Shown: one piece after another, positions 1,926 to 15,350 of the stretch
Position numbering within the stretch: the stretch's first letter is position 1
Layout: each line of letters starts with the position of its first letter
Origin: a virus
Lineage: Duplodnaviria > Heunggongvirae > Uroviricota > Caudoviricetes
Virus record (IMG/VR): IMGVR_UViG_2690316153_000018
Direction: 5' to 3' (one strand)
Length of the DNA stretch: 15,350 nt
Translations under genes and position numbers: made by a program
The notes under the pieces: model-generated
What the model saw: only the letters and a program-made list of their open reading frames with translations
Database searches by the model: none
What the model was told of the DNA's origin: nothing

Positions 1926-3029
1926 TCAAACAATCTGGAAAATATTTCTTGGATTTGTAATAGGTCTGTTGATGGAGAACAACTCACGAATTAAATCTTG
2001 GCTCAAGCCAGTTTTCATAAGAATTCTTAGCCAGGTTGCATCATCCAGCATTTCAATCGCCTCGGCCAGCATACCGGGTTCTTCAGGGCGCAAAAGTTCA
2101 TCACCAGGTTCAACTCTCGTATACCCTCTGGAATTAAGATGCATATAGCCAGTTCTTGCCTGTTCCTGGGTCAATAAGCCTAATGCGCTGGCTCGATAAA
2201 TACACATTTTAAGGCTGATTTTCCATCTAAGTTTAAATTCAACCAGAGCATTCCAGTCGAATTGCTTACCTCGTATTCGTGGAAATTCTTTAATGAAAGA
2301 TAACCTGGGAACTAATAAGGCGCTCGAAAAGTGATCGGCTTGTGATTCCGTAAGTTTATCACCTGTCGTTATGCCCTCATGCATTACTAAATGCCCTAAT
2401 TCATGACCTAAATCAGAGCGAAATCTACATATGCTTTTTTTAACATTGTTCCTGATGATAACAGGCCTGTTATTGTGAACAGTAAAAGCATCAACACGAT
2501 CATCGACTCCCGTAACATGCGCAACGATTACCCCTAAACTCTCCGCCAATTTAACCATTGATGATATAGGGCCAAGACCTAAATTCCAGGCACGGCGACA
2601 ATCTTCTGCCACTCGCTCAATATCATTCGGAGTAAGTAATTCAGCCCCTGGGTGCTCCGGTATGTTAACGTCAGGAAATTCGATTTCACCTTCAACAGCA
2701 GAAATTATAATATTAAGAATCTCAGCCCTGGCCAATACACTATTAGTCAGCGTTTGAGTCCTGGACTTCTTACTCCGAAAATGGCAGACATCACTTTCCA
2801 GAGCGTATTTTCGTTCAGTAAAAAGAAAACTGGACTTAATCATAAGCGCTGAAGATATTAACTCAAGACATTGCTCCGATGGCCTGCACCCCTTCTCCAG
2901 TTTGCTAACGAATTGCTTTGTCTTGCCAATTTTTTCGGCTAACTCTTCACAAGAAAGCCCAACAGCCATTCTCGCTAGTTTGAGCTTATCACCCCGATAC
3001 TCAGTGAAGTTATTCACCTGATGTTCCAT
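1926..3029 (-). CDS. Fusion protein: N-terminal XRE-family helix-turn-helix + C-terminal ImmA/IrrE-type (COG2856/DUF955-like) zinc metallopeptidase
   Basis: N-terminus LKLARMAVGLSCEELAEKIGKTKQFVSKLEKG is a typical XRE HTH. HExxH motif present in DLGHELGHLVMHEG. ORF track starts at GTG 3032; an ATG at 3029 is the likelier start. The 5' end overlaps the stop of the upstream gene by about 20 nt. Confidence 0.8.
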   Translation of the reverse strand: MEHQVNNFTEYRGDKLKLARMAVGLSCEELAEKIGKTKQFVSKLEKGCRPSEQCLELISSALMIKSSFLFTERKYALESDVCHFRSKKSRTQTLTNSVLARAEILNIIISAVEGEIEFPDVNIPEHPGAELLTPNDIERVAEDCRRAWNLGLGPISSMVKLAESLGVIVAHVTGVDDRVDAFTVHNNRPVIIRNNVKKSICRFRSDLGHELGHLVMHEGITTGDKLTESQADHFSSALLVPRLSFIKEFPRIRGKQFDWNALVEFKLRWKISLKMCIYRASALGLLTQEQARTGYMHLNSRGYTRVEPGDELLRPEEPGMLAEAIEMLDDATWLRILMKTGLSQDLIRELFSINRPITNPRNIFQIV

Positions 3030-3660
3030 CACTGCTCACATCCAAATCTTTATCCTTCGTACGCCGACGAAGAGGCACCTTATTAATCTCCGCTTCGTCA
3101 GGGAGTGTGTTATAATCAAGAGGCATAAGCGGCATCGATGCTGTAGATTGATGAGAAACTATACTAATCTGAGCACCATAAGTATTAAATCCAACAAGAG
3201 CTACCTCCCAACGAGGCAGTGTGGACTCTAATTCACCATCGCCCTCTTCGGATAAAAAAGGCTCAGCTATGACTCGCCATGTAATATCTTGCTCAGCCTC
3301 AACATCACCAAACAATGAGAGTTGCTCATACTCTACTTTATTTCGACGCAGACGATGTTTCTTTTTGGGGTTATTAATGCAATCTTTGGTAAATTGTAGC
3401 GGAACTTTATTTAAAGCAACTACATAGTCCAACCCCTTGGAAATCATCTCAAGGCCAGGAATTGCATCTTCATTTTGAATAAGATGATTTCTGACCCAAT
3501 CATAAGCCCTTACACCTTCAGACCAGTTGCTGTCTAATGCGTGCTTATGATAGTACAGCTGCTCAAGTACGTTAGCGATCTCCGCCAACAAGTGGCGAAC
3601 ATAGTTTTCAGCAAGATAAGGTTGAAATTCCCAACAAGGAGCTAACTGATTTTCATTCAT
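3010..3660 (-). CDS. hypothetical protein (216 aa), translationally coupled to the downstream HTH-peptidase gene
   Basis: ORF with ATG at 3660; its stop (3012..3010) overlaps the start of the HTH-ImmA gene. No motif I can assign. Confidence 0.7.
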   Translation of the reverse strand: MNENQLAPCWEFQPYLAENYVRHLLAEIANVLEQLYYHKHALDSNWSEGVRAYDWVRNHLIQNEDAIPGLEMISKGLDYVVALNKVPLQFTKDCINNPKKKHRLRRNKVEYEQLSLFGDVEAEQDITWRVIAEPFLSEEGDGELESTLPRWEVALVGFNTYGAQISIVSHQSTASMPLMPLDYNTLPDEAEINKVPLRRRTKDKDLDVSSDGTSGE

Positions 3661-3825: not shown

Positions 3826-3981
3826 TTACTCCTCAGGTTCGTAAGCTGTGAAGACAGCGACCTCCGTCTGGCCGGTTCGGATTCGTACCTCGCAGAGGTC
3901 TTTCCTCGTTACCAGTGCCGTCACTATGACGGTTAAACAGATGACGATCAGGGCGATTAACATCGCCTTTTGCTGCTTCAT
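3826..3981 (-). CDS. hokD: Hok/Gef-family small membrane toxin (51 aa from the internal ATG; the ORF track extends to 4038)
   Basis: Translation MKQQKAMLIALIVICLTVIVTALVTRKDLCEVRIRTGQTEVAVFTAYEPEE has a single TM helix and the conserved C-terminal Cys/Arg/Tyr-Glu pattern of Hok-family toxins. Matches my recollection of E. coli HokD (RelF). Confidence 0.8.
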   Translation of the reverse strand: MKQQKAMLIALIVICLTVIVTALVTRKDLCEVRIRTGQTEVAVFTAYEPEE

Positions 3982-4660
3982 AGCCTGCTTCTCCTTGCCT
4001 TTCGGCACGTAAGAGGCTAACCTACGTGTGTAGAGCATAGATATGGCCTCAGATTAATGTTAAGCGTCTTGCCGGACGCGTAATGTTAACTGGGGCTTTT
4101 CTCTATCTGCCTTTGGTGTTGATGCCCGAGGCAGATAGCCTCAAGCACCCGCAGCAATTCTACTTAACTACCGTTACCTCGCCAATATGAAATCAATCAG
4201 AAAGGTGATCCATAAGAACAACAGCAAGACAATAAATTGCCATTACAGCAGCAATAGCCAGCGCACATTTGAGAACCAGCACCACAACCTCCTGTATTGG
4301 ACGTACACCAGTCCTGATAAATATGAGGCTGTCTCGTCAGTGATTCAATACAACTACTGGGTATAGTTTCTATGATTTTGTTCTGTGGAAATGGAAAACA
4401 GCAACCAGTCACCACCAGCACTTCTTTAAACATGCCAAGTCACACGCAAGCCAACATTATAGTTCCCTTTGAGCGAGCAGATGAAGCTAGCAAAAATATT
4501 GATCACTTAGGATGCATTACTAACGTTGCTATGTGTTAACGAACAGGGAGTGGGTCATCAGCATAAATATTTATGCAGTAGGTTTCTTTTAGGACTAGAT
4601 TAATCAAAAACATTTAGATAAAATTATAAAATCAAGAAATTGGTGGCAATTAATCTTTAA

Positions 4661-4689
4661 TTGTGCCAGCTGAATTTCGTTATTATAGA
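4661..4689 (+). promoter_or_regulatory. Candidate sigma70 promoter for the membrane-protein/methyltransferase operon
   Basis: TTGTGC (4661..4666), 17-nt spacer, TATAGA (4684..4689), about 35 nt upstream of the ATG at 4725 in an AT-rich leader. By eye only. Confidence 0.3.
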
Positions 4690-4724
4690 AGATTAGCTTT
4701 TTTTTTGAGTGTTTGGAGAGTAAA

Positions 4725-5420
4725 ATGTTAGAACCACCAAAGAGTTATAATGAAATGTTGCCTATGCTCCATAAGGCGACTTTTATTACTACATTTATAT
4801 TTTACCTATCATTAGTCATTTATGGCTACATGCCATTGGTTGGCATTAATGCCAAGTATATCCCCCCCGTTAAAGACTACGAGGAATTTATTAAATGGAT
4901 ATTAACCTTTGGCATATTACCAATTGCATCTTCAGTTTTTTGGTCAGTAATTAGTGGAGCTTTAGATCTACATAATAATGTAGCAAAAATTATTGGAATA
5001 AGGAAGATGTGGGATAGTCATTTAATTATTAAACCATTAGCAAAAATTGCAGGCGTTACGAGAAAATTAACTACTGATGAATCTCACAAGGTAATGAGTA
5101 AACTGTATTACCCAGAAGTTAAAGAGTTAAAAGACAAACATTACGTTGAACTTTTCTGGAACAAAGTTTATTACTTTTGGGTTTTCTTTGAACATACAGT
5201 AATCGCATTTGTTACTATTTTAATAATAAGTATCGCCAAATTAACAAATATATTCTCTGTTACTGGCTCTTTAATTAATCTTTGGTTGTGGATTATTTCT
5301 CTTGTCGCATTTGACTTCCTTATTTTCATAGCATCAGTTAAACCAAGAACAGAAAGCCAAGTAAGACAAATACCTGATAGCAAAATAAAAGAATTCTTTA
5401 ACAATAACAATATTTTTTAA
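4725..5420 (+). CDS. Integral membrane protein with four predicted TM helices (2 TM + ~65-aa loop + 2 TM), function unknown
   Basis: ATG at 4725 preceded by GGAGAG at about 5-nt spacing (the ORF track starts at TTG 4713). Four hydrophobic stretches: ATFITTFIFYLSLVIYGYMPLVGI, FIKWILTFGILPIASSVFWSVISGAL, VYYFWVFFEHTVIAFVTILIISIA, TGSLINLWLWIISLVAFDFLIFIASV. Codon usage is strongly AT-rich. Confidence 0.8.
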   Translation: MLEPPKSYNEMLPMLHKATFITTFIFYLSLVIYGYMPLVGINAKYIPPVKDYEEFIKWILTFGILPIASSVFWSVISGALDLHNNVAKIIGIRKMWDSHLIIKPLAKIAGVTRKLTTDESHKVMSKLYYPEVKELKDKHYVELFWNKVYYFWVFFEHTVIAFVTILIISIAKLTNIFSVTGSLINLWLWIISLVAFDFLIFIASVKPRTESQVRQIPDSKIKEFFNNNNIF

Positions 5421-5426
5421 ACGAGG

Positions 5427-6086
5427 TTGATTTTGAATTACAAAATAAATGGAATAAACATACGTTCAGAAAATGCAGCGAAACCGCACACTATGCCATC
5501 TAACTATCTCTGTAAACAGATTGAAAGCACTAATAAAAATGGCAATGCCCTTGATTTTGGATGTGGAAAACTTAGATATTCAGAACAATTAGTAAATAAA
5601 TTTGAAACTGTGACATTTTTAGATTCCAGAAGACAACTAGAAAGAGTGCAAATTATCAGAGGTGTACAAACCACGATTCCAGATTACGTGATAAATAACT
5701 ATAAGAATGCTAATATTGTTTCTTATGAAAATATAGATAAAATAACAAATCATTATGATTTCATACTTTGCGCAAACGTGCTTTCCGCAATTCCATGTGA
5801 ATCCACAATTCACAAAGTCCTCAGTGCGATTAGAGAATTATTAAAGAGTGATGGTGAAGCACTGATTGTCAATCAATACAAAAGTTCTTATTTCAAGAGG
5901 TACGAGAGCGGTATTAAACATTTGCATGGGTATATATACCAAAACTCTCGCAATGCTTTCTACTATGGTTTATTAGATGTGGATACTGTAAGTAAAATAT
6001 GCTCAGATAATAATTTAGAAATAATAAAATCATGGAGCAAAGCAGGTAGTTCATATGTGGTTGTTGGTAAACATATACATATTTAG
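5427..6086 (+). CDS. Small class-I SAM-dependent methyltransferase-fold protein (about 217-219 aa), substrate unknown
   Basis: Motif I ALDFGCGKL, acidic residue ending beta-2 (TVTFLDS) and a motif-IV-like YDFILCANVLSAIP. Start is TTG at 5427 or 5433; GAGG at 5423..5426 gives good spacing to 5433. The first in-frame ATG is at 5493. Lies 6-12 nt after the stop of the membrane-protein gene. Confidence 0.7.
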   Translation: MILNYKINGINIRSENAAKPHTMPSNYLCKQIESTNKNGNALDFGCGKLRYSEQLVNKFETVTFLDSRRQLERVQIIRGVQTTIPDYVINNYKNANIVSYENIDKITNHYDFILCANVLSAIPCESTIHKVLSAIRELLKSDGEALIVNQYKSSYFKRYESGIKHLHGYIYQNSRNAFYYGLLDVDTVSKICSDNNLEIIKSWSKAGSSYVVVGKHIHI

Positions 6087-6400
6087 TTTATTTCAACAAA
6101 TTATTAGAAAGAGTGATTTGCTTGTTAATTATTAGCTCGGCAGTGCCGGATCAACATGACCCTGCCACTTAGGCCATTGCCGGTTTACCTACTTTTGTAA
6201 GGTTCAGCATGAAGTTTTTATATACTCTTCCTAATATCAATAGTGATGCTCGCTTATGTTAGCTGCTTCTTGTACATAGTAGCCTTCTCCGACAGTACTG
6301 CAATGAGCGGAGAGTAAAAGTCGATAAACAATAAGGAGGTTCACAATAAATATTTCTCGGTGAAACTTTCAAAGCATTCTCTGTTTTGCTAAATCGACAA

Positions 6401-7300
6401 TTATAAATCAACAACATTTAGTGTTATATCAATATTATTTAGCCTTGCAATCTCTGATGAATCACTTGCTATTTTAGCTTTTAATTTATCAATATTAATC
6501 ATATCTTCATGGCTTATATAAACCATATCACCTTGGTTAACTTTAGATTTGTTCACTATGGCTTGAATAACAGACAAATCATCCATTACACCTCTCATAA
6601 ATTTCACCATGCTTTGATCTTTGAAGTCAGATATCGATTTTGAACGTTGCTTACGTTGAATTGTTCCTTTTGTAATTACTTCATTAATTTCTTTTAAACC
6701 AGTGAGCATATCAGACAGACTGCCTTCGCAACTCATCCGATGTTTTATTGCATTGCGATTAATAATATTGAGTATAATTTCGAGTGAATCTTTATCACTC
6801 CATGGATGTAATGATGTATAATCATGATGACGTCGAATGGCGTCAATCATATCCTGGACCATATCTTCATCTGCTTTATCGCAAAGTTCATTCACGAAAT
6901 AGCTGGGGTCGATTATTTTACAATAACTTGGAGTTAGGTATCTTGAGGCTTTACAAAAACCAAAAATATATAAAGTAGAGTATTTATCTTTCAGACTCTC
7001 TCCTATTTCATTTATTTTCTCAAAAGATTCGATAGTTTTTTTAATTTTTGCTGGACTTGCATTCGTAGTAACTTGAACTGCTATCATGTTTTTATTATCA
7101 GCTAAATCAATGGCGGGAAAATTAACTTTAATCTGATTCATGTTTACCAGCTCACCCATTTTCAGCGCGCGAAACATAAAGATGGTCAATGACTCAATTA
7201 TTCTTTCCATGTCATGAAAGCCTGCCTGTTTGCGTTGCGCGATATAAAGCTGGAGTAGTGCAATATCACTCTGTAAGTTTCTAATAAGTGGATCAATCAT
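6401..7300 (-). CDS. hypothetical protein (299 aa); N-terminal region resembles, from memory, a SMEK-type domain
   Basis: ORF with ATG at 7300 and AAGGA about 9 nt upstream. N-terminal HDMERIIESL and NFPAIDLADNKNMIAVQVTTNASPAKIKKTIESF resemble the signature I associate with SMEK-domain proteins; not verified by HMM. AT-rich codon usage; convergent with the 4725..6086 operon. Confidence 0.75.
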   Translation of the reverse strand: MIDPLIRNLQSDIALLQLYIAQRKQAGFHDMERIIESLTIFMFRALKMGELVNMNQIKVNFPAIDLADNKNMIAVQVTTNASPAKIKKTIESFEKINEIGESLKDKYSTLYIFGFCKASRYLTPSYCKIIDPSYFVNELCDKADEDMVQDMIDAIRRHHDYTSLHPWSDKDSLEIILNIINRNAIKHRMSCEGSLSDMLTGLKEINEVITKGTIQRKQRSKSISDFKDQSMVKFMRGVMDDLSVIQAIVNKSKVNQGDMVYISHEDMINIDKLKAKIASDSSEIARLNNIDITLNVVDL

Positions 7301-7552
7301 AGCTAATAATCCTTTTCAATGAAGCTGGAGGTGTGTTTAACTATTAGTTAAATTTCTATTTTTATAGAAACAAGCTTTACAACTTCATCAAAGTTTCTCA
7401 AATCCTAATCCACTTTGCAAATCCACTAACCATGCTGAATGCTTTCTGTTGTTAAACATATCCGCTGCTGGCACCAAGCAGACAAACACACTAACTCTAC
7501 CCTACTCCACAAAAGAGCCAATCAATATCTGAACTAATAAACTTTAATCTCA

Positions 7553-8981: not shown

Positions 8982-9483
8982 AATTCCATCCAGCTTTTTG
9001 TTGGTATTGCTGTCGATACGCAAGCTTGAAAGCAATTGCTTTTTCTATAAGTTCGTCAGTTTCACGATCTACAACGGCAGGATCTGCAAAAAGCAGTCCG
9101 GATTCCACCACATCGCCATATTCTTTATTTAACCCGGCGATCATGTACGTAATACTTTTTCCATCACTGATCTCACGATACAACCTGAAATCACTAATCC
9201 GGATAGCCTCCATAATCGCAGGCACTAGCGCCATGAACTTTTCACGCTTATCCCTGGTGTCGATAGCCTTCCAGCGTTCGAATATCTTCACTCGATTAAC
9301 GCCAAGCGCTCGCTGATCAACCGCGCCACCTTCATCTGTGACACGCTGAACATCGATGTTCGGGCGCTCTTTCAAAGCCCAGAATGCTTCAGTGATTAAT
9401 ATCGTCGCCTGCTCCTGTGTCATTCCTGGTCGACATATCCAGGCATCCAGAGCCTCACGAGCCTGTTCAGGAGTGATTTTCAT
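8962..9483 (-). CDS. hypothetical phage protein (173 aa) immediately downstream of dicC (cII-like position)
   Basis: ATG at 9483 overlaps the 3' end of dicC by about 17 nt, suggesting translational coupling. No motif assigned. Confidence 0.65.
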   Translation of the reverse strand: MKITPEQAREALDAWICRPGMTQEQATILITEAFWALKERPNIDVQRVTDEGGAVDQRALGVNRVKIFERWKAIDTRDKREKFMALVPAIMEAIRISDFRLYREISDGKSITYMIAGLNKEYGDVVESGLLFADPAVVDRETDELIEKAIAFKLAYRQQYQQKAGWNYESSFC

Positions 9484-9697
9484 TGTTCAACCGCCCCGCC
9501 CGCTTCGTCTTACGATATTCATCATAAACTTTGGGATCATACTGAAGCTCCCCGCCAGATGCCTCCTGTAGACGCATCGCGCGACCTTCGGGAACTAAAT
9601 CCCCTTTCCAGCTATAAAGCGAAGCCAAACGAATACCTGCTGCTTGTGCAAGTTTTGTTTTTGAACCGAAATACAAAAGAGCGTCAGTTTTAAGCAT
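9467..9697 (-). CDS. dicC: Cro-like repressor DicC
   Basis: 76-aa product MLKTDALLYFGSKTKLAQAAGIRLASLYSWKGDLVPEGRAMRLQE... matches my recollection of E. coli DicC. Divergent from dicA across an 83-bp operator region. Confidence 0.88.
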   Translation of the reverse strand: MLKTDALLYFGSKTKLAQAAGIRLASLYSWKGDLVPEGRAMRLQEASGGELQYDPKVYDEYRKTKRAGRLNNENHS

Positions 9698-9780: not shown

Positions 9781-10188
9781 ATGGAAACAAAAAATTTAAC
9801 TATCGGCGAACGCATTAGGTATCGTCGGAAAAACCTCAAACACACCCAAAGGTCTCTTGCTAAAGCCCTGAAAATCTCCCATGTGTCTGTATCACAATGG
9901 GAACGGGATGATAGTGAACCTACAGGGAAGAACCTTTTTGCCCTCAGCAAAGTATTGCAATGCTCACCAACATGGATTCTATTTGGCGATGAAGACAAGC
10001 AACCAACACCACCTGTTGAGAAGCCAGTTGCCTTATCCCCCAAAGAACTAGAGCTCCTTGAGCTGTTTAATGCACTGCCAGAATCAGAACAGGATACCCA
10101 GCTCGCCGAAATGCGAGCTCGAGTAAAAAACTTCAATAAACTCTTTGAAGAATTACTAAAAGCCCGTCAGCGGACAAATAAAAGATAA
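9781..10188 (+). CDS. dicA: cI-like HTH repressor DicA (XRE family)
   Basis: 135-aa product METKNLTIGERIRYRRKNLKHTQRSLAKALKISHVSVSQWERDDSEP... with a clear XRE-type HTH; matches my recollection of E. coli DicA. Confidence 0.9.
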   Translation: METKNLTIGERIRYRRKNLKHTQRSLAKALKISHVSVSQWERDDSEPTGKNLFALSKVLQCSPTWILFGDEDKQPTPPVEKPVALSPKELELLELFNALPESEQDTQLAEMRARVKNFNKLFEELLKARQRTNKR

Positions 10189-11229: not shown

Positions 11230-11282
11230 TTTCTGGTGACGTTTGGCGGTATCAGTTTTACTCCGTGACTGCTCTGCCGCCC
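11230..11282 (+). ncRNA. dicF: DicF small regulatory RNA (53 nt), an Hfq-dependent ftsZ-targeting sRNA processed from the dicB-operon transcript
   Basis: Sequence TTTCTGGTGACGTTTGGCGGTATCAGTTTTACTCCGTGACTGCTCTGCCGCCC followed by TTTTT matches DicF as I remember it, in the expected position between ydfC and dicB after a roughly 340-nt untranslated leader. Confidence 0.7.
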
Positions 11283-11925: not shown

Positions 11926-14043
11926 ATGAGTAAAGTCTTTATTTGCGCTGCTATTCCTGATGAACAGGCCATAAAAGAAGATAGCGCTGTTGCGGTGGCC
12001 ACTGCCATTGAAGCTGGTGATGAGCGTCGCGCACGCGCAAAATTTCATTGGCAATTTCTGGAGCAATTCCCTGCAGCTCAGGACTGCGCTTATAAATTTA
12101 TTGTCTGTGAGGATAAACCCGGCATACCCCGCCCTGCCCTCGATTCCTGGGATGCTGAATATATGCAGGAAAACCGCTGGGATGAGGAGTCTGCTTCCTT
12201 TGTCCCGGTTGAGACTGAATCCGATCCGATGAACGTCACTTTTGACAAGCTGGCCCCTGAAGTACAGAACGCTGTCATGGTTAAGTTCGACACATGTGAA
12301 AACATCACCGTTGATATGGTTATTAGCGCACAGGAATTGTTGCAGGAAGACATGGCAACATTCGACGGACATATCGTTGAAGCGTTGATGAAAATGCCAG
12401 AAGTTAACGCCATGTATCCGGAGCTTAAGCTGCATGCCATCGGGTGGGTTAAGCATAAATGTAAGCCTGATGCCCTTCGCTACGACCGCCAGACTATTTT
12501 TGGCCTTGTCCGTGAACGTCCGATCGACATTCACAAAGACCCTGTGGCACTGAACAAATACATTACTGAATACCTGACTACAAAGGGCGTGTTTGAAGAT
12601 GAAGGAACAAATCAGAGCGCAACTGATACTCTCTCGTCGTCAGTACCAGAAACTGATGCAGTGGAAACGGCAATTCCGGACAACGAAAAAACCGAATGCA
12701 AAGTGGAAGTCGAACCATCTGTAGAGCGTGAGGGGCCGTTCTACTTCCTCTTCACCGACAAGGATGGCGAAAAATACGGTCGCGCAAACAAACTTTCTGG
12801 TCTGGATAAGGCACTGGCTGCCGGGGCTACTGAAATCACGAAAGAAGAATATTTCGCCCGCAAAAACAGTACATACTCAGGTTCACAACAAAATACTGGT
12901 GCATCTGACACGACCGCACAACCAGAGCCGGTAAAAGTTACCGCTGACGAAGTAAACAAAATTATGCAGGCAGCCAATATCAGCCAGCCTGACGCCGATA
13001 AGTTGCTTGCTGCCTCTCGCGGAGAATTTGTTGCAGGGATTAGCGACCCGAATGATCCGAAATGGGTAAAGGGGATGGAAACCCGCGATTCTGTAAACCA
13101 GAACCAGCAAGAATCGGAACAGAACGACCAGAAAGCGGAACAAAACAGCCCAAATACGCAACAAAACGAGCCAGAAACGAAACAACCTGAGCCAGTAGCG
13201 CAACAGGAACCGGAAAAAGTCTGCACCGCCTGCGGTCAAAGCGGTGGTGGCAACTGCCATGATTGTGGCGCGGTGATGGGTGACGCAACATACCAGGAAA
13301 CATTCGATGAAGAGAATCAGGTTGAAGTTCAGGAAAATGATCCGGAGGAAATGGAAGGCGCTGAACATCCACACAAGGAGAATGCTGGTAGCGCTCAGGA
13401 TCACGCCAGCGATAGTGAAACTGGCGAGACGGCAGATCCCTTAATTACGGTGAACGGTCATCACGTTATCACATCCACCAGCAGGACGTGTGACCATCTA
13501 ATGATCGACCTTGAAACCATGGGAAAAAATCCTGATGCCCCGATTATCTCAATAGGTGCAATATTTTTCGATCCGCAAACCGGAGATATGGGACCGGAAT
13601 TTAGTAAGACTATTGATCTGGAAACTGCTGGCGGAGTCATTGATCGGGACACCATTAAATGGTGGCTTAAGCAATCACGCGAAGCGCAATCTGCCATTAT
13701 GACCGATGAAATCCCGTTAGATGATGCACTGTTACAATTGCGGGAATTTATCGACGAAAACTCCGGTGAATTTTTTGTTCAGGTCTGGGGTAACGGTGCA
13801 ACTTTCGACAACGTGATTTTACGCCGTTCATATGAACGGCAGGGGATCCCCTGCCCGTGGCGTTACACCAATGATCGCGATGTAAGAACGATGGTTGCTC
13901 TGGGACTGGTGATGGATTTCGACGCAAGAACGACTATTCCATTCGAAGGTGAACGCCATAACGCTCTGAACGATGCACGTTACCAGGCGAAATACGTTTC
14001 AGCCATCTGGCAAAAACTGCTCCCGAGTCAGGCTGATTTTTAA
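11926..14043 (+). CDS. ydfE: Full-length YdfE-like protein (705 aa) with C-terminal DEDD-type (DnaQ-like) 3'-5' exonuclease domain
   Basis: Long uninterrupted ORF. C-terminus has exonuclease motifs MIDLETMG (Exo I), [12 protein letters not shown] (Exo II) and HNALNDARY (Exo III). A CxxC-x8-CxxC zinc-ribbon-like motif ([16 protein letters not shown]) and an acidic/Gln-rich low-complexity linker precede it. Confidence 0.85.
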
Positions 14044-14110: not shown

Positions 14111-14353
14111 ATGTACGAATTAACTCTATCTCCAGCAGAGATTAAAGAGATCACGAAATACGAGCGATACACAAAACAGCAACACCAGTTAAGACTGCAC
14201 GGCATCCCATTTGTAATCGGCCCTAAAAACGAACCCATAGTTCTCCGCAGGGATATTCCACACGGTCTGACAACGATGCCAAAAACATCTGAACTGGTTT
14301 CTGCTGAACCCGATTTTGAGGCGCTGAACAATGGGAAGACCAAGAAAAAATAA
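14111..14353 (+). CDS. xis: Excisionase-like protein (about 80 aa), overlapping the integrase start
   Basis: ATG at 14111 within ORF 13973..14353; the 3' end overlaps the int start by 23 nt, as in lambda xis/int; small basic product. Assigned by position and size, not by a recognised motif. Confidence 0.55.
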   Translation: MYELTLSPAEIKEITKYERYTKQQHQLRLHGIPFVIGPKNEPIVLRRDIPHGLTTMPKTSELVSAEPDFEALNNGKTKKK

Positions 14354-15350
14354 AAAAGATAATGTACTGCCACCGCGGGTTAGATCGAATGGTTACAGTT
14401 ACGTGTGGAAACCCGAAGGAAGTACAAGAAGTATAGGGCTAGGAAGAGTGCGGAAAACCAGCGTAGCTAAAGTCTGGCAAAATTATGAACTGGAAAAAGC
14501 AAAACTCCACAACATAATGACCGTAGCTAAATTATGGCACATGTTTATGGACTCCCCTGCATTTACAGAACTGGCCCCCCGAACCCAAAAAGATTATCGA
14601 CAACATCAGAAGGCGTTGCTGATGGTATTCGGAAAAGTGCTTGCTGATAATGTCAAAACTGAGCAGGTAAGAATTTTCATGGATAAACGAGGGCTTGAGA
14701 GCAAGACCCAGGCAAATCATGAACTGGCAAGCCTGAGTCGAGTATACGGGTGGGGATATGAGCGTGGGTATGTGAAGAATAACCCATGCAAAGGAGTCAG
14801 AAAATTCTCTCTTAAAGCCCGCACTGTTTACATCACCGATGAACAGTATGCGGCGATATATGCGGAAGCAATTCCACAGTTACGCATTGCAATGGAGATT
14901 TCCTATCTCTGTGCGGCAAGACTCGGTGATGTGCTTGAGTTGAAATGGCAGGATATTATGGATAAAGGGATCTACATTGAGCAAAACAAAACCGGCACCA
15001 AACAAATCAAGGAATGGTCACCGCGATTACGTACAGCGATCCAGTTAGCCCGAAATGTATCTTCCTGTACATGCGAATATGTGATCAATACAACCAAAGG
15101 CGGGAAAGTCATAGCTAAAACGCTGAATAACTGGTGGAATCAGGCTAAACGCGCAGCCGAGCAAAAAGTTGGCGTTCCGTTCGGGTGTAATTTTCACGAC
15201 ATAAAAGCCAAGGGGATCTCAGATTACGAAGGCAGCAGTCGCGACAAACAAATTTTCAGCGGGCATAAAACAGAAAATCAGGTGTTGATTTACGATCGTA
15301 AAACAAAAATCACACCAACACTGGATTTGCCGCTCGTGGTTAGCAAGTAG
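14331..15350 (+). CDS. int: Lambda-family tyrosine integrase (339 aa, apparently intact)
   Basis: N-terminus MGRPRKNKKDNVLPPRVRSNGYSYVWKPEGSTRSIGLGRV resembles lambda Int. Catalytic-region residues are visible (KWQDIMDKGIYIEQNKTG..., FHDIKAKG, SGHKTENQVLIYDRK with the putative catalytic Tyr). The stop codon is the last three bases of the window. Confidence 0.9.
   Translation: MGRPRKNKKDNVLPPRVRSNGYSYVWKPEGSTRSIGLGRVRKTSVAKVWQNYELEKAKLHNIMTVAKLWHMFMDSPAFTELAPRTQKDYRQHQKALLMVFGKVLADNVKTEQVRIFMDKRGLESKTQANHELASLSRVYGWGYERGYVKNNPCKGVRKFSLKARTVYITDEQYAAIYAEAIPQLRIAMEISYLCAARLGDVLELKWQDIMDKGIYIEQNKTGTKQIKEWSPRLRTAIQLARNVSSCTCEYVINTTKGGKVIAKTLNNWWNQAKRAAEQKVGVPFGCNFHDIKAKGISDYEGSSRDKQIFSGHKTENQVLIYDRKTKITPTLDLPLVVSK

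Follow-up and report, generated by a model that had tools for sequence, protein, structure and literature searches.

The gene at positions 4725-5420 of the stretch of DNA analysed here (15,350 nucleotides at its full length, hereafter the window) encodes, judged by its sequence, a member of the YmfE family. We consider it probable that this inner-membrane protein, encoded by the first gene of a ymfE-ymfD cargo operon, protects the lysogen at a step after adsorption, most likely against the genome entry of T5-like phages. Homology to YmfE of E. coli K-12, at 60% identity, speaks for an anti-phage role; the block of DNA entry, the membrane topology, the contact between YmfE and YmfD and the silencing of this copy by H-NS are points that we infer. 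The ymfE-ymfD pair was without known function until September 2026, when a preprint dated 2026-09-11 and not yet reviewed, which contains the only experimental data on the family, renamed YmfE “Kunado” (bioRxiv 10.64898/2026.09.05.749240).

The coding sequence (4725..5420, plus strand, 231 amino acids) was assigned from the open reading frame, its Shine-Dalgarno sequence, hydropathy, an AlphaFold2 model, homology and family alignments. It starts with the ATG at 4725, preceded by GGAGAG at 4716-4721, and its stop codon lies at 5418-5420; the N-termini of the homologues (MLEPPK/MFEPPK) align with this ATG and not with the upstream TTG at 4713. A chance reading frame can be dismissed, because the frame runs for 231 codons in DNA of about 31% GC, has many homologues and is accompanied by a partner gene that is kept across phyla. 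In a Kyte-Doolittle profile with a 19-residue window, four segments exceed 1.6 (residues ~18-42, 56-82, 148-176 and 181-207), and the hydrophilic stretch 83-147 divides them into two pairs. The AlphaFold2 model, calculated from an 18-sequence alignment (mean pLDDT 87.3, pTM 0.81), contains helices at residues 8-32, 53-80, 82-90, 92-108, 117-133, 138-174, 183-214 and 218-227, which form two helical hairpins and a soluble insert of three helices (82-90, 92-108 and 117-133). Hydropathy and this confident model thus bear out the preliminary description, which had seen a four-helix membrane protein with two helices on either side of a charged loop of ~65 residues and had recommended structure prediction; no structure in the PDB or among the viral predictions of BFVD specifically resembles the predicted fold. 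Lysine and arginine residues are concentrated in the central loop (13), followed by the C-terminal tail (4), the N-terminal tail (2) and the loop 43-55 (2), with none in the loop 175-182. According to the positive-inside rule, this distribution points to cytoplasmic N- and C-termini and a cytoplasmic central loop. The protein is therefore best described as a predicted inner-membrane protein with four transmembrane helices in N-in/C-in orientation, in which residues 83-147 would form a cytoplasmic helical domain. A cytoplasmic C-terminus of YmfE-type proteins also fits the distant homologue P0170, which carries a TIR domain at this end.

No match was found for the protein at E<=0.01 in Pfam, NCBIfam and PHROGs, nor for any family at E<=0.1 among the PADLOC models, including RexB and KwaA, so that the absence of an enzymatic motif noted earlier holds in all four collections. 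The Pfam SLATT model matches neither this protein nor nine members of the superfamily, including the TIR fusion P0170. These searches also bear on the question whether the gene could encode a holin, a transporter or another housekeeping membrane protein of the prophage, as small prophage proteins with several transmembrane helices are often holins and the gene is located in a lambdoid prophage. However, the match to a holin or transporter family that the preliminary description had named as a refutation did not turn up in Pfam, NCBIfam or PHROGs. The syntenic prophage of strain C7 already encodes a class II holin, a lysozyme and lysis genes in another place; ymfE itself belongs to a low-GC cargo island and not to the lysis cassette, and the same gene pair also occurs outside prophages. 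With no family match, a cargo-island location and separate lysis genes, such a role is extremely improbable and can be regarded as effectively refuted.

The clue to the identity of the protein was its partner gene, since one homologue of the encoded methyltransferase bears the name ymfD. In a BLASTP comparison, the protein aligns without gaps to YmfE of the K-12 element e14 (WP_010723094) with 139 identities in 230 positions (60%, E 2e-108). The product of the neighbouring gene at 5433-6086 is 68% identical to YmfD of e14 (WP_000241967), and sensitive blastn gives the gene pair 68.9% DNA identity to ymfE-ymfD of K-12 across 99% of its length. The motifs NY-EML, LH(N/D), GIR--(W/F)D, (F/Y)Y, DxH and W-(W/F)FW---E of the YmfE family are present as well. 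The preliminary description had stated that sequence alone does not assign the protein to a family, a statement that cannot be maintained in view of this similarity and of the identity of the pair as ymfE-ymfD. The close homologues obtained in the homology search number only 39 and are all enterobacterial, and in a full HMMER scan of 1.84 billion cluster representatives, 221 proteins reached E<=1e-3, almost all of them 220-250 amino acids long; a word-index search with the broad superfamily alignment as query returned only 8 proteins. No copy was detected by tblastn in 50,697 deposited phage genomes, and the matches among plasmids are limited to 3 records. Among 5,426 complete E. coli genomes, blastn detected the pair in 434 (~8%, K-12 included), of which the allele of the island described here, at an identity of at least 99%, accounts for 146, and the band of 60-80% identity, which includes the e14 copies of K-12 (68.9%), for 283. 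In the literature search, WP_000892866, WP_001373963 and WP_000566848 were mentioned in no paper, the pair is not among the systems cloned for DefensePredictor, and the Rousset paper on P2/P4 hotspots does not mention it.

The pair of the window and that of K-12 resemble each other in the layout of four transmembrane helices with a central loop, in the downstream ymfD partner, and in being AT-rich prophage cargo that adjoins another defence-type gene. They differ in the host element, which is e14 in K-12 and a Qin/DicA-type prophage here, and in their position, as the K-12 pair lies beside int/att at the int-proximal end of e14, whereas the pair at 4725-6086 follows the replication genes. The neighbours are likewise different: in e14 it is the divergent lit gene, encoding the Lit protease, with intE nearby, and in the window a convergent gene with a SMEK domain. 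The copy at 4725-5420 is moreover a different allele, with 69% DNA identity to K-12 ymfE, and the reported phenotype is that of the K-12 copy alone. The intergenic region between lit and ymfE in K-12 e14 (L041, 3726-3790) contains a short tandem repeat of about 8 copies of TCATTTCA-like units, which is not present upstream of ymfE at 4725.

The second gene of the pair (5433..6086, plus strand, 217 amino acids) begins 12 nt past the ymfE stop codon with a TTG start, preceded by a GAGG Shine-Dalgarno sequence at 5423-5426, and was assigned from Pfam matches, YmfD homology and an AlphaFold2 model. Its product matches Methyltransf_12/23 and TehB in Pfam, and the model (pLDDT 89.4) shows a minimal Rossmann methyltransferase. 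Both the N-terminal IRSENAAKP motif and the SAM loop LDFGCGKLRYS of K-12 YmfD are kept; the invariant features of the ymfD type are the SAM-binding motif LDFGCGKLRY and the residues D41, G43, C44, K46-Y49 and D64. DNA-methyltransferase motifs were not found. According to Foldseek, the fold is nearest to small-molecule and tRNA-base methyltransferases (Trm9, MfnG, NNMT, DhpI, DnrK and NodS), with TM-scores of ~0.6, which are too generic to suggest a substrate for YmfD. We predict that the protein is a minimal class I SAM-dependent methyltransferase and the operon partner of ymfE. PD-lambda-5, a defence system with a methyltransferase-like component (PMC9519451), was considered and rejected, as only the methyltransferase gave a weak match to mad2 (E 9.7e-5) and the ymfE-like protein matched none of the PD-Lambda-5 models of PADLOC.

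In order to survey the pairing, HMMs for both proteins were scanned over all fetched loci. The pairing is obligate: wherever an examined locus leaves space for the two genes, ymfE and ymfD lie side by side, in either gene order, and the only unpaired loci, L016 and L019, both end at a contig edge. The pair is found in the window, in e14 of K-12, in P2-like prophages of Providencia and Enterobacter, in a lambdoid prophage of Enterobacter hormaechei and in a P4-cII/relaxase island, and furthermore in Pseudomonas, Colwellia, Marinobacter and two alphaproteobacterial contigs. All 28 IMG/VR viral contigs that carry ymfE also carry ymfD (28/28), and MAGs of Acidobacteriota, Deltaproteobacteria and Planctomycetota contain the pair in reversed order. 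In an alphaproteobacterial locus, the membrane protein is only ~25% identical to that encoded at 4725-5420, and the overlapping neighbouring gene encodes a protein with 33% identity to the methyltransferase at 5433-6086 (E 5e-32) in which the IRSENAAKP motif is kept. The tie to the downstream methyltransferase-like gene that had been suspected from the window was thus correct, the pair being ymfE-ymfD.

A membrane protein next to a small class I SAM methyltransferase is also the arrangement of TehA/TehB, and the two genes could accordingly form a pair for lysogenic conversion or detoxification, in which the methyltransferase modifies a small molecule, a lipid or a quinone, and the membrane protein presents the substrate or exports the product. 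The product of 5433-6086 indeed scores above the Pfam threshold for TehB (24.4 bits, cut-off 20.4), its nearest folds and its lack of DNA-methyltransferase motifs are in line with such an activity, and its relatives are called UbiG-like by the JGI annotators. The scores against the NCBIfam TehB equivalogs, however, are far below the cut-offs (29.1 against 303 and 28 against 218), and the ymfE-like protein is unrelated to the 10-TM TehA and matches neither TehA/SLAC1 nor a transporter in Pfam. Furthermore, YmfE of K-12 confers phage resistance without YmfD (bioRxiv 10.64898/2026.09.05.749240), a ymfD knockout shows no growth phenotype (PMC12096079), and the pair is consistently located at prophage cargo sites and in defence islands, a context of mobile defence cargo. 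We therefore regard a TehA/TehB-like function as improbable.

The window comes from a lambdoid prophage of E. coli that belongs to the Qin/DicA-DicC type, with an integrase (14331-15350), an exonuclease (11926-14043), the DicF antisense RNA (11231-11282, plus strand; Rfam RF00039, 76.7 bits), dicA (9781-10188) and dicC (9467-9697), together with a YdaT-like gene, replication genes, a DUF977 gene and DUF968. The presence of DicF in a Qin-like immunity region with dicA and dicC confirms the prophage type. According to the composition profile, ymfE, ymfD and the convergent SMEK-domain gene occupy a low-GC cargo island (4500..7500) of ~3 kb, flanked by hokD/sok on one side and by the DUF977 and replication genes on the other, with a GC content of 0.30-0.35 as opposed to 0.41-0.55 in most 500-nt windows elsewhere, a composition compatible with a locus silenced by H-NS. 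The context of this island, which occurs at an identity of at least 99% in the 146 complete genomes, was taken from the annotation of strain C7. Upstream of ymfE lies an AT-rich intergenic leader (4540..4724, plus strand, GC about 0.30-0.32), which is presumed to be the promoter and H-NS target region; a simple scan of it gave no match to the sigma-70 consensus, and no terminator was detected by scanning after ymfD at 6086. Although a “potential SOS box” has been listed for K-12 ymfE, neither ymfE nor ymfD of K-12 shows SOS induction in transcriptomics, and no convincing LexA box was found upstream of ymfE at 4725, where a single half-pattern with one mismatch, ~180 nt away, is within chance expectation.

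The neighbourhood contains further cargo. The gene convergent on ymfD (6401-7300, minus strand) encodes a protein of 299 amino acids assigned by its SMEK_N domain match, the N-terminus of which matches the PADLOC model of an Argonaute-associated REase-PNTD (E 1.4e-20). This gene accompanies ymfE-ymfD in 151 E. coli genomes and is absent from the loci of the pair in other genera, for which reason it is probably independent cargo or an independent defence candidate. A pair of the RosmerTA type, identified with PADLOC, is encoded on the minus strand at 1926-3660 and consists of RmrA with an HTH and an M78 peptidase domain (1926-3032, minus strand, E 6e-105) and RmrT (3010-3660, minus strand, E 5e-25). 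The annotation of the C7 prophage (L001), which is syntenic in other respects, does not contain this pair, and the pair therefore has the appearance of additional cargo inserted between hokD and the ninR-side genes. Directly adjoining the low-GC island, at 3826-4150 (minus strand), are a hokD-type toxin gene (Pfam HOK_GEF, E 3e-23) and its sok antisense RNA (3976-4150; Rfam RF01794, 114 bits).

Across genomes, the ymfE-ymfD pair is a resident of prophage cargo sites and of defence islands. In the lambdoid prophages (the window and L012) it follows O/P-type replication genes, and in the P2-like prophages (L003-8) it follows ogr at the prophage end. In the P4-cII/relaxase island (L009) it lies beside an RT-Toprim retron and the “beta” gene of gop-beta-cII, and in another locus (L014) it adjoins an AbiGi-like gene. 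In Pseudomonas (L092, 386-5334, and L002, 1-3321), the pair is located directly downstream of Hachiman HamA/HamB (HamB2 E=0); these two loci belong to the same lineage, with YmfE proteins 86% identical, and count as one evolutionary instance of linkage to Hachiman. An insertion of ~1.1-1.2 kb interrupts ymfE, or IS elements (ISVsa5, IS3, IS1A) are present in the island, in several genomes of E. coli (L119, 4519-6552; L123, 4463-6381; hits H14-H16 and H35), and the gene may be costly or dispensable in some hosts.

The reported experiments concern the K-12 copy. In delta-hns strains of K-12, resistance to T5-like phages maps to e14, and of the Keio deletions of e14 genes, only that of ymfE restores the plating of these phages in a delta-hns strain (bioRxiv 10.64898/2026.09.05.749240). 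On pBR322 and under its own promoter, ymfE protects strain BW25113 delta-9, which is devoid of cryptic prophages and therefore of ymfD, so that ymfE alone sufficed in this strain (bioRxiv 10.64898/2026.09.05.749240). The protection is directed against T5-like phages that use different receptors and leaves adsorption unblocked, from which observation alone the authors drew their hypothesis that YmfE acts by superinfection exclusion at DNA entry (bioRxiv 10.64898/2026.09.05.749240). The same preprint describes H-NS silencing of the ymfE/lit locus of K-12 and never mentions ymfD. The ymfD knockout of K-12 grew normally, and no specific role in mRNA m6A could be assigned to the gene (PMC12096079).

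A 50-sequence alignment of the superfamily, including the protein encoded at 4725-5420, indicates where the functional part of YmfE may be located. Four residues (Y8, H83, Y129 and W152) are invariant, and three more (R93, D97 and E156) are conserved in at least 90% of the sequences. All positions conserved in at least 80%, among them these seven as well as H139 and I216, fall within one of the two terminal tails, the central loop or the juxtamembrane start of TM3, and conservation is lowest in the two loops predicted to be periplasmic. Conservation in the superfamily is thus confined to the predicted cytoplasmic face, as opposed to the membrane core, where it would be expected for a conserved pore lining. 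The metagenome protein P0170 (395 amino acids) combines a four-helix module of the YmfE type with a C-terminal TIR domain (TIR_2, E 2e-20), a fusion that fits a defence role for the superfamily, and its nearest relative on a contig, L043, has ymfD upstream. A search for the contig of P0170 in genome and metagenome collections gave only relatives consisting of the transmembrane module (L020-22 and L042-43) and unrelated TIR proteins.

These features have to be weighed against each other with regard to the mechanism. The preliminary description had pointed to pore-forming or membrane-disrupting effectors of abortive infection; its link to defence stands, and is strengthened by the homology to K-12 YmfE, whereas the effector itself becomes a competing explanation and is not the best reading. 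The authors of the preprint interpret the K-12 phenotype as superinfection exclusion. According to this competing explanation, YmfE would be a membrane sensor or effector of the Abi type, similar to RexB or Kiwa, which senses genome entry or a perturbation of the membrane and then opens or disrupts the membrane or activates an enzyme (YmfD, or the TIR NADase in P0170), so that the infected cell is stopped or killed. In keeping with it are the four transmembrane helices, the large domain conserved on the cytoplasmic side, the presence of an enzyme partner that is obligate across phyla, and the location of the pair in defence islands, as is P0170, since TIR is a typical Abi effector and the relative L043 keeps ymfD upstream. 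The insertions that interrupt ymfE in some genomes could mirror a fitness cost, and normal adsorption fits abortive infection equally well (bioRxiv 10.64898/2026.09.05.749240). On the other hand, a multicopy plasmid with ymfE alone under its native promoter protected cells lacking ymfD, and toxicity was not reported (bioRxiv 10.64898/2026.09.05.749240). Furthermore, the membrane core has no conserved polar lining, the conserved residues being juxtamembrane and cytoplasmic, the protein resembles neither RexB nor KwaA nor another membrane component in PADLOC at E<=0.1, and the TIR fusion is a single sequence. An abortive mechanism is accordingly a possibility to be taken seriously, albeit a rather unlikely one.

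Superinfection exclusion by T4 Imm, P22 SieA and HK97 gp15, small inner-membrane proteins encoded by phages or prophages, does not affect adsorption and presumably acts on the entry of the genome, which is also the mechanism put forward for YmfE. However, there is no sequence relationship to these classical exclusion proteins, as the ymfE-like protein has no match in PHROGs, and YmfE is larger, has a conserved cytoplasmic domain and an obligate enzyme partner, and occurs in several bacterial phyla. In these respects the family has more in common with sensor/effector defence systems than with a classical exclusion protein of narrow distribution and fast evolution. RexB of the lambda RexAB system and KwaA of Kiwa (PMC11785009) likewise combine a four-helix inner-membrane protein with a neighbouring cytoplasmic partner in prophages or defence islands, and it is plausible that YmfE, RexB and KwaA have the sensing of a membrane event as their common logic. 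In contrast to these systems, the partner of YmfE is a SAM methyltransferase and not RexA or KwaB, and K-12 YmfE acted without its partner in the one experiment described (bioRxiv 10.64898/2026.09.05.749240).

Following the preprint, we rank a block at entry first because YmfE alone suffices, because its action is independent of the receptor and because no toxicity is reported. This ranking of exclusion at entry is only modestly above an abortive or sensor-type mechanism, because a spread over several phyla, a conserved cytoplasmic domain, an obligate enzyme partner and a TIR fusion are typical of sensor-effector systems. In the exclusion model, YmfE would act in the inner membrane and after adsorption to shield the lysogen from other phages, and the step that it most likely stops is the productive genome entry or the establishment of T5-like siphophages. 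The protection would thus resemble superinfection exclusion and not lysis, transport or a housekeeping function. The N-terminal segment, the 65-aa loop, the juxtamembrane start of TM3 and the C-terminal helix would together form a cytoplasmic domain, which may act as the working and regulatory surface of YmfE and as the docking site for the cytoplasmic SAM methyltransferase YmfD.

A more far-reaching interpretation, which we put forward tentatively and consider less likely to be true than false, is that YmfE-YmfD is an ancient two-component membrane immunity module of several phyla, to which the methyltransferase belongs as an integral component, and that YmfE is a gate or sensor that binds a swappable enzymatic arm. 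This arm would be YmfD in nearly all loci and the fused TIR domain in P0170. If, on the contrary, the methyltransferase is irrelevant, YmfE would be one more prophage-encoded exclusion protein. Beyond the preprint, the strict coupling to a methyltransferase across phyla, the conserved cytoplasmic residues and the TIR-fused variant provide new handles on the mechanism, and the window adds a second, divergent ymfE-ymfD allele in a different prophage, where it lies beside RosmerTA, hok/sok and a SMEK-domain gene. Should the interpretation as a two-component module be true, it would represent a methylation step in anti-phage defence that is unrelated to restriction-modification, for which the candidate methylation targets would be YmfE itself, a signal in the form of a lipid or small molecule, or a phage protein located where entry takes place.
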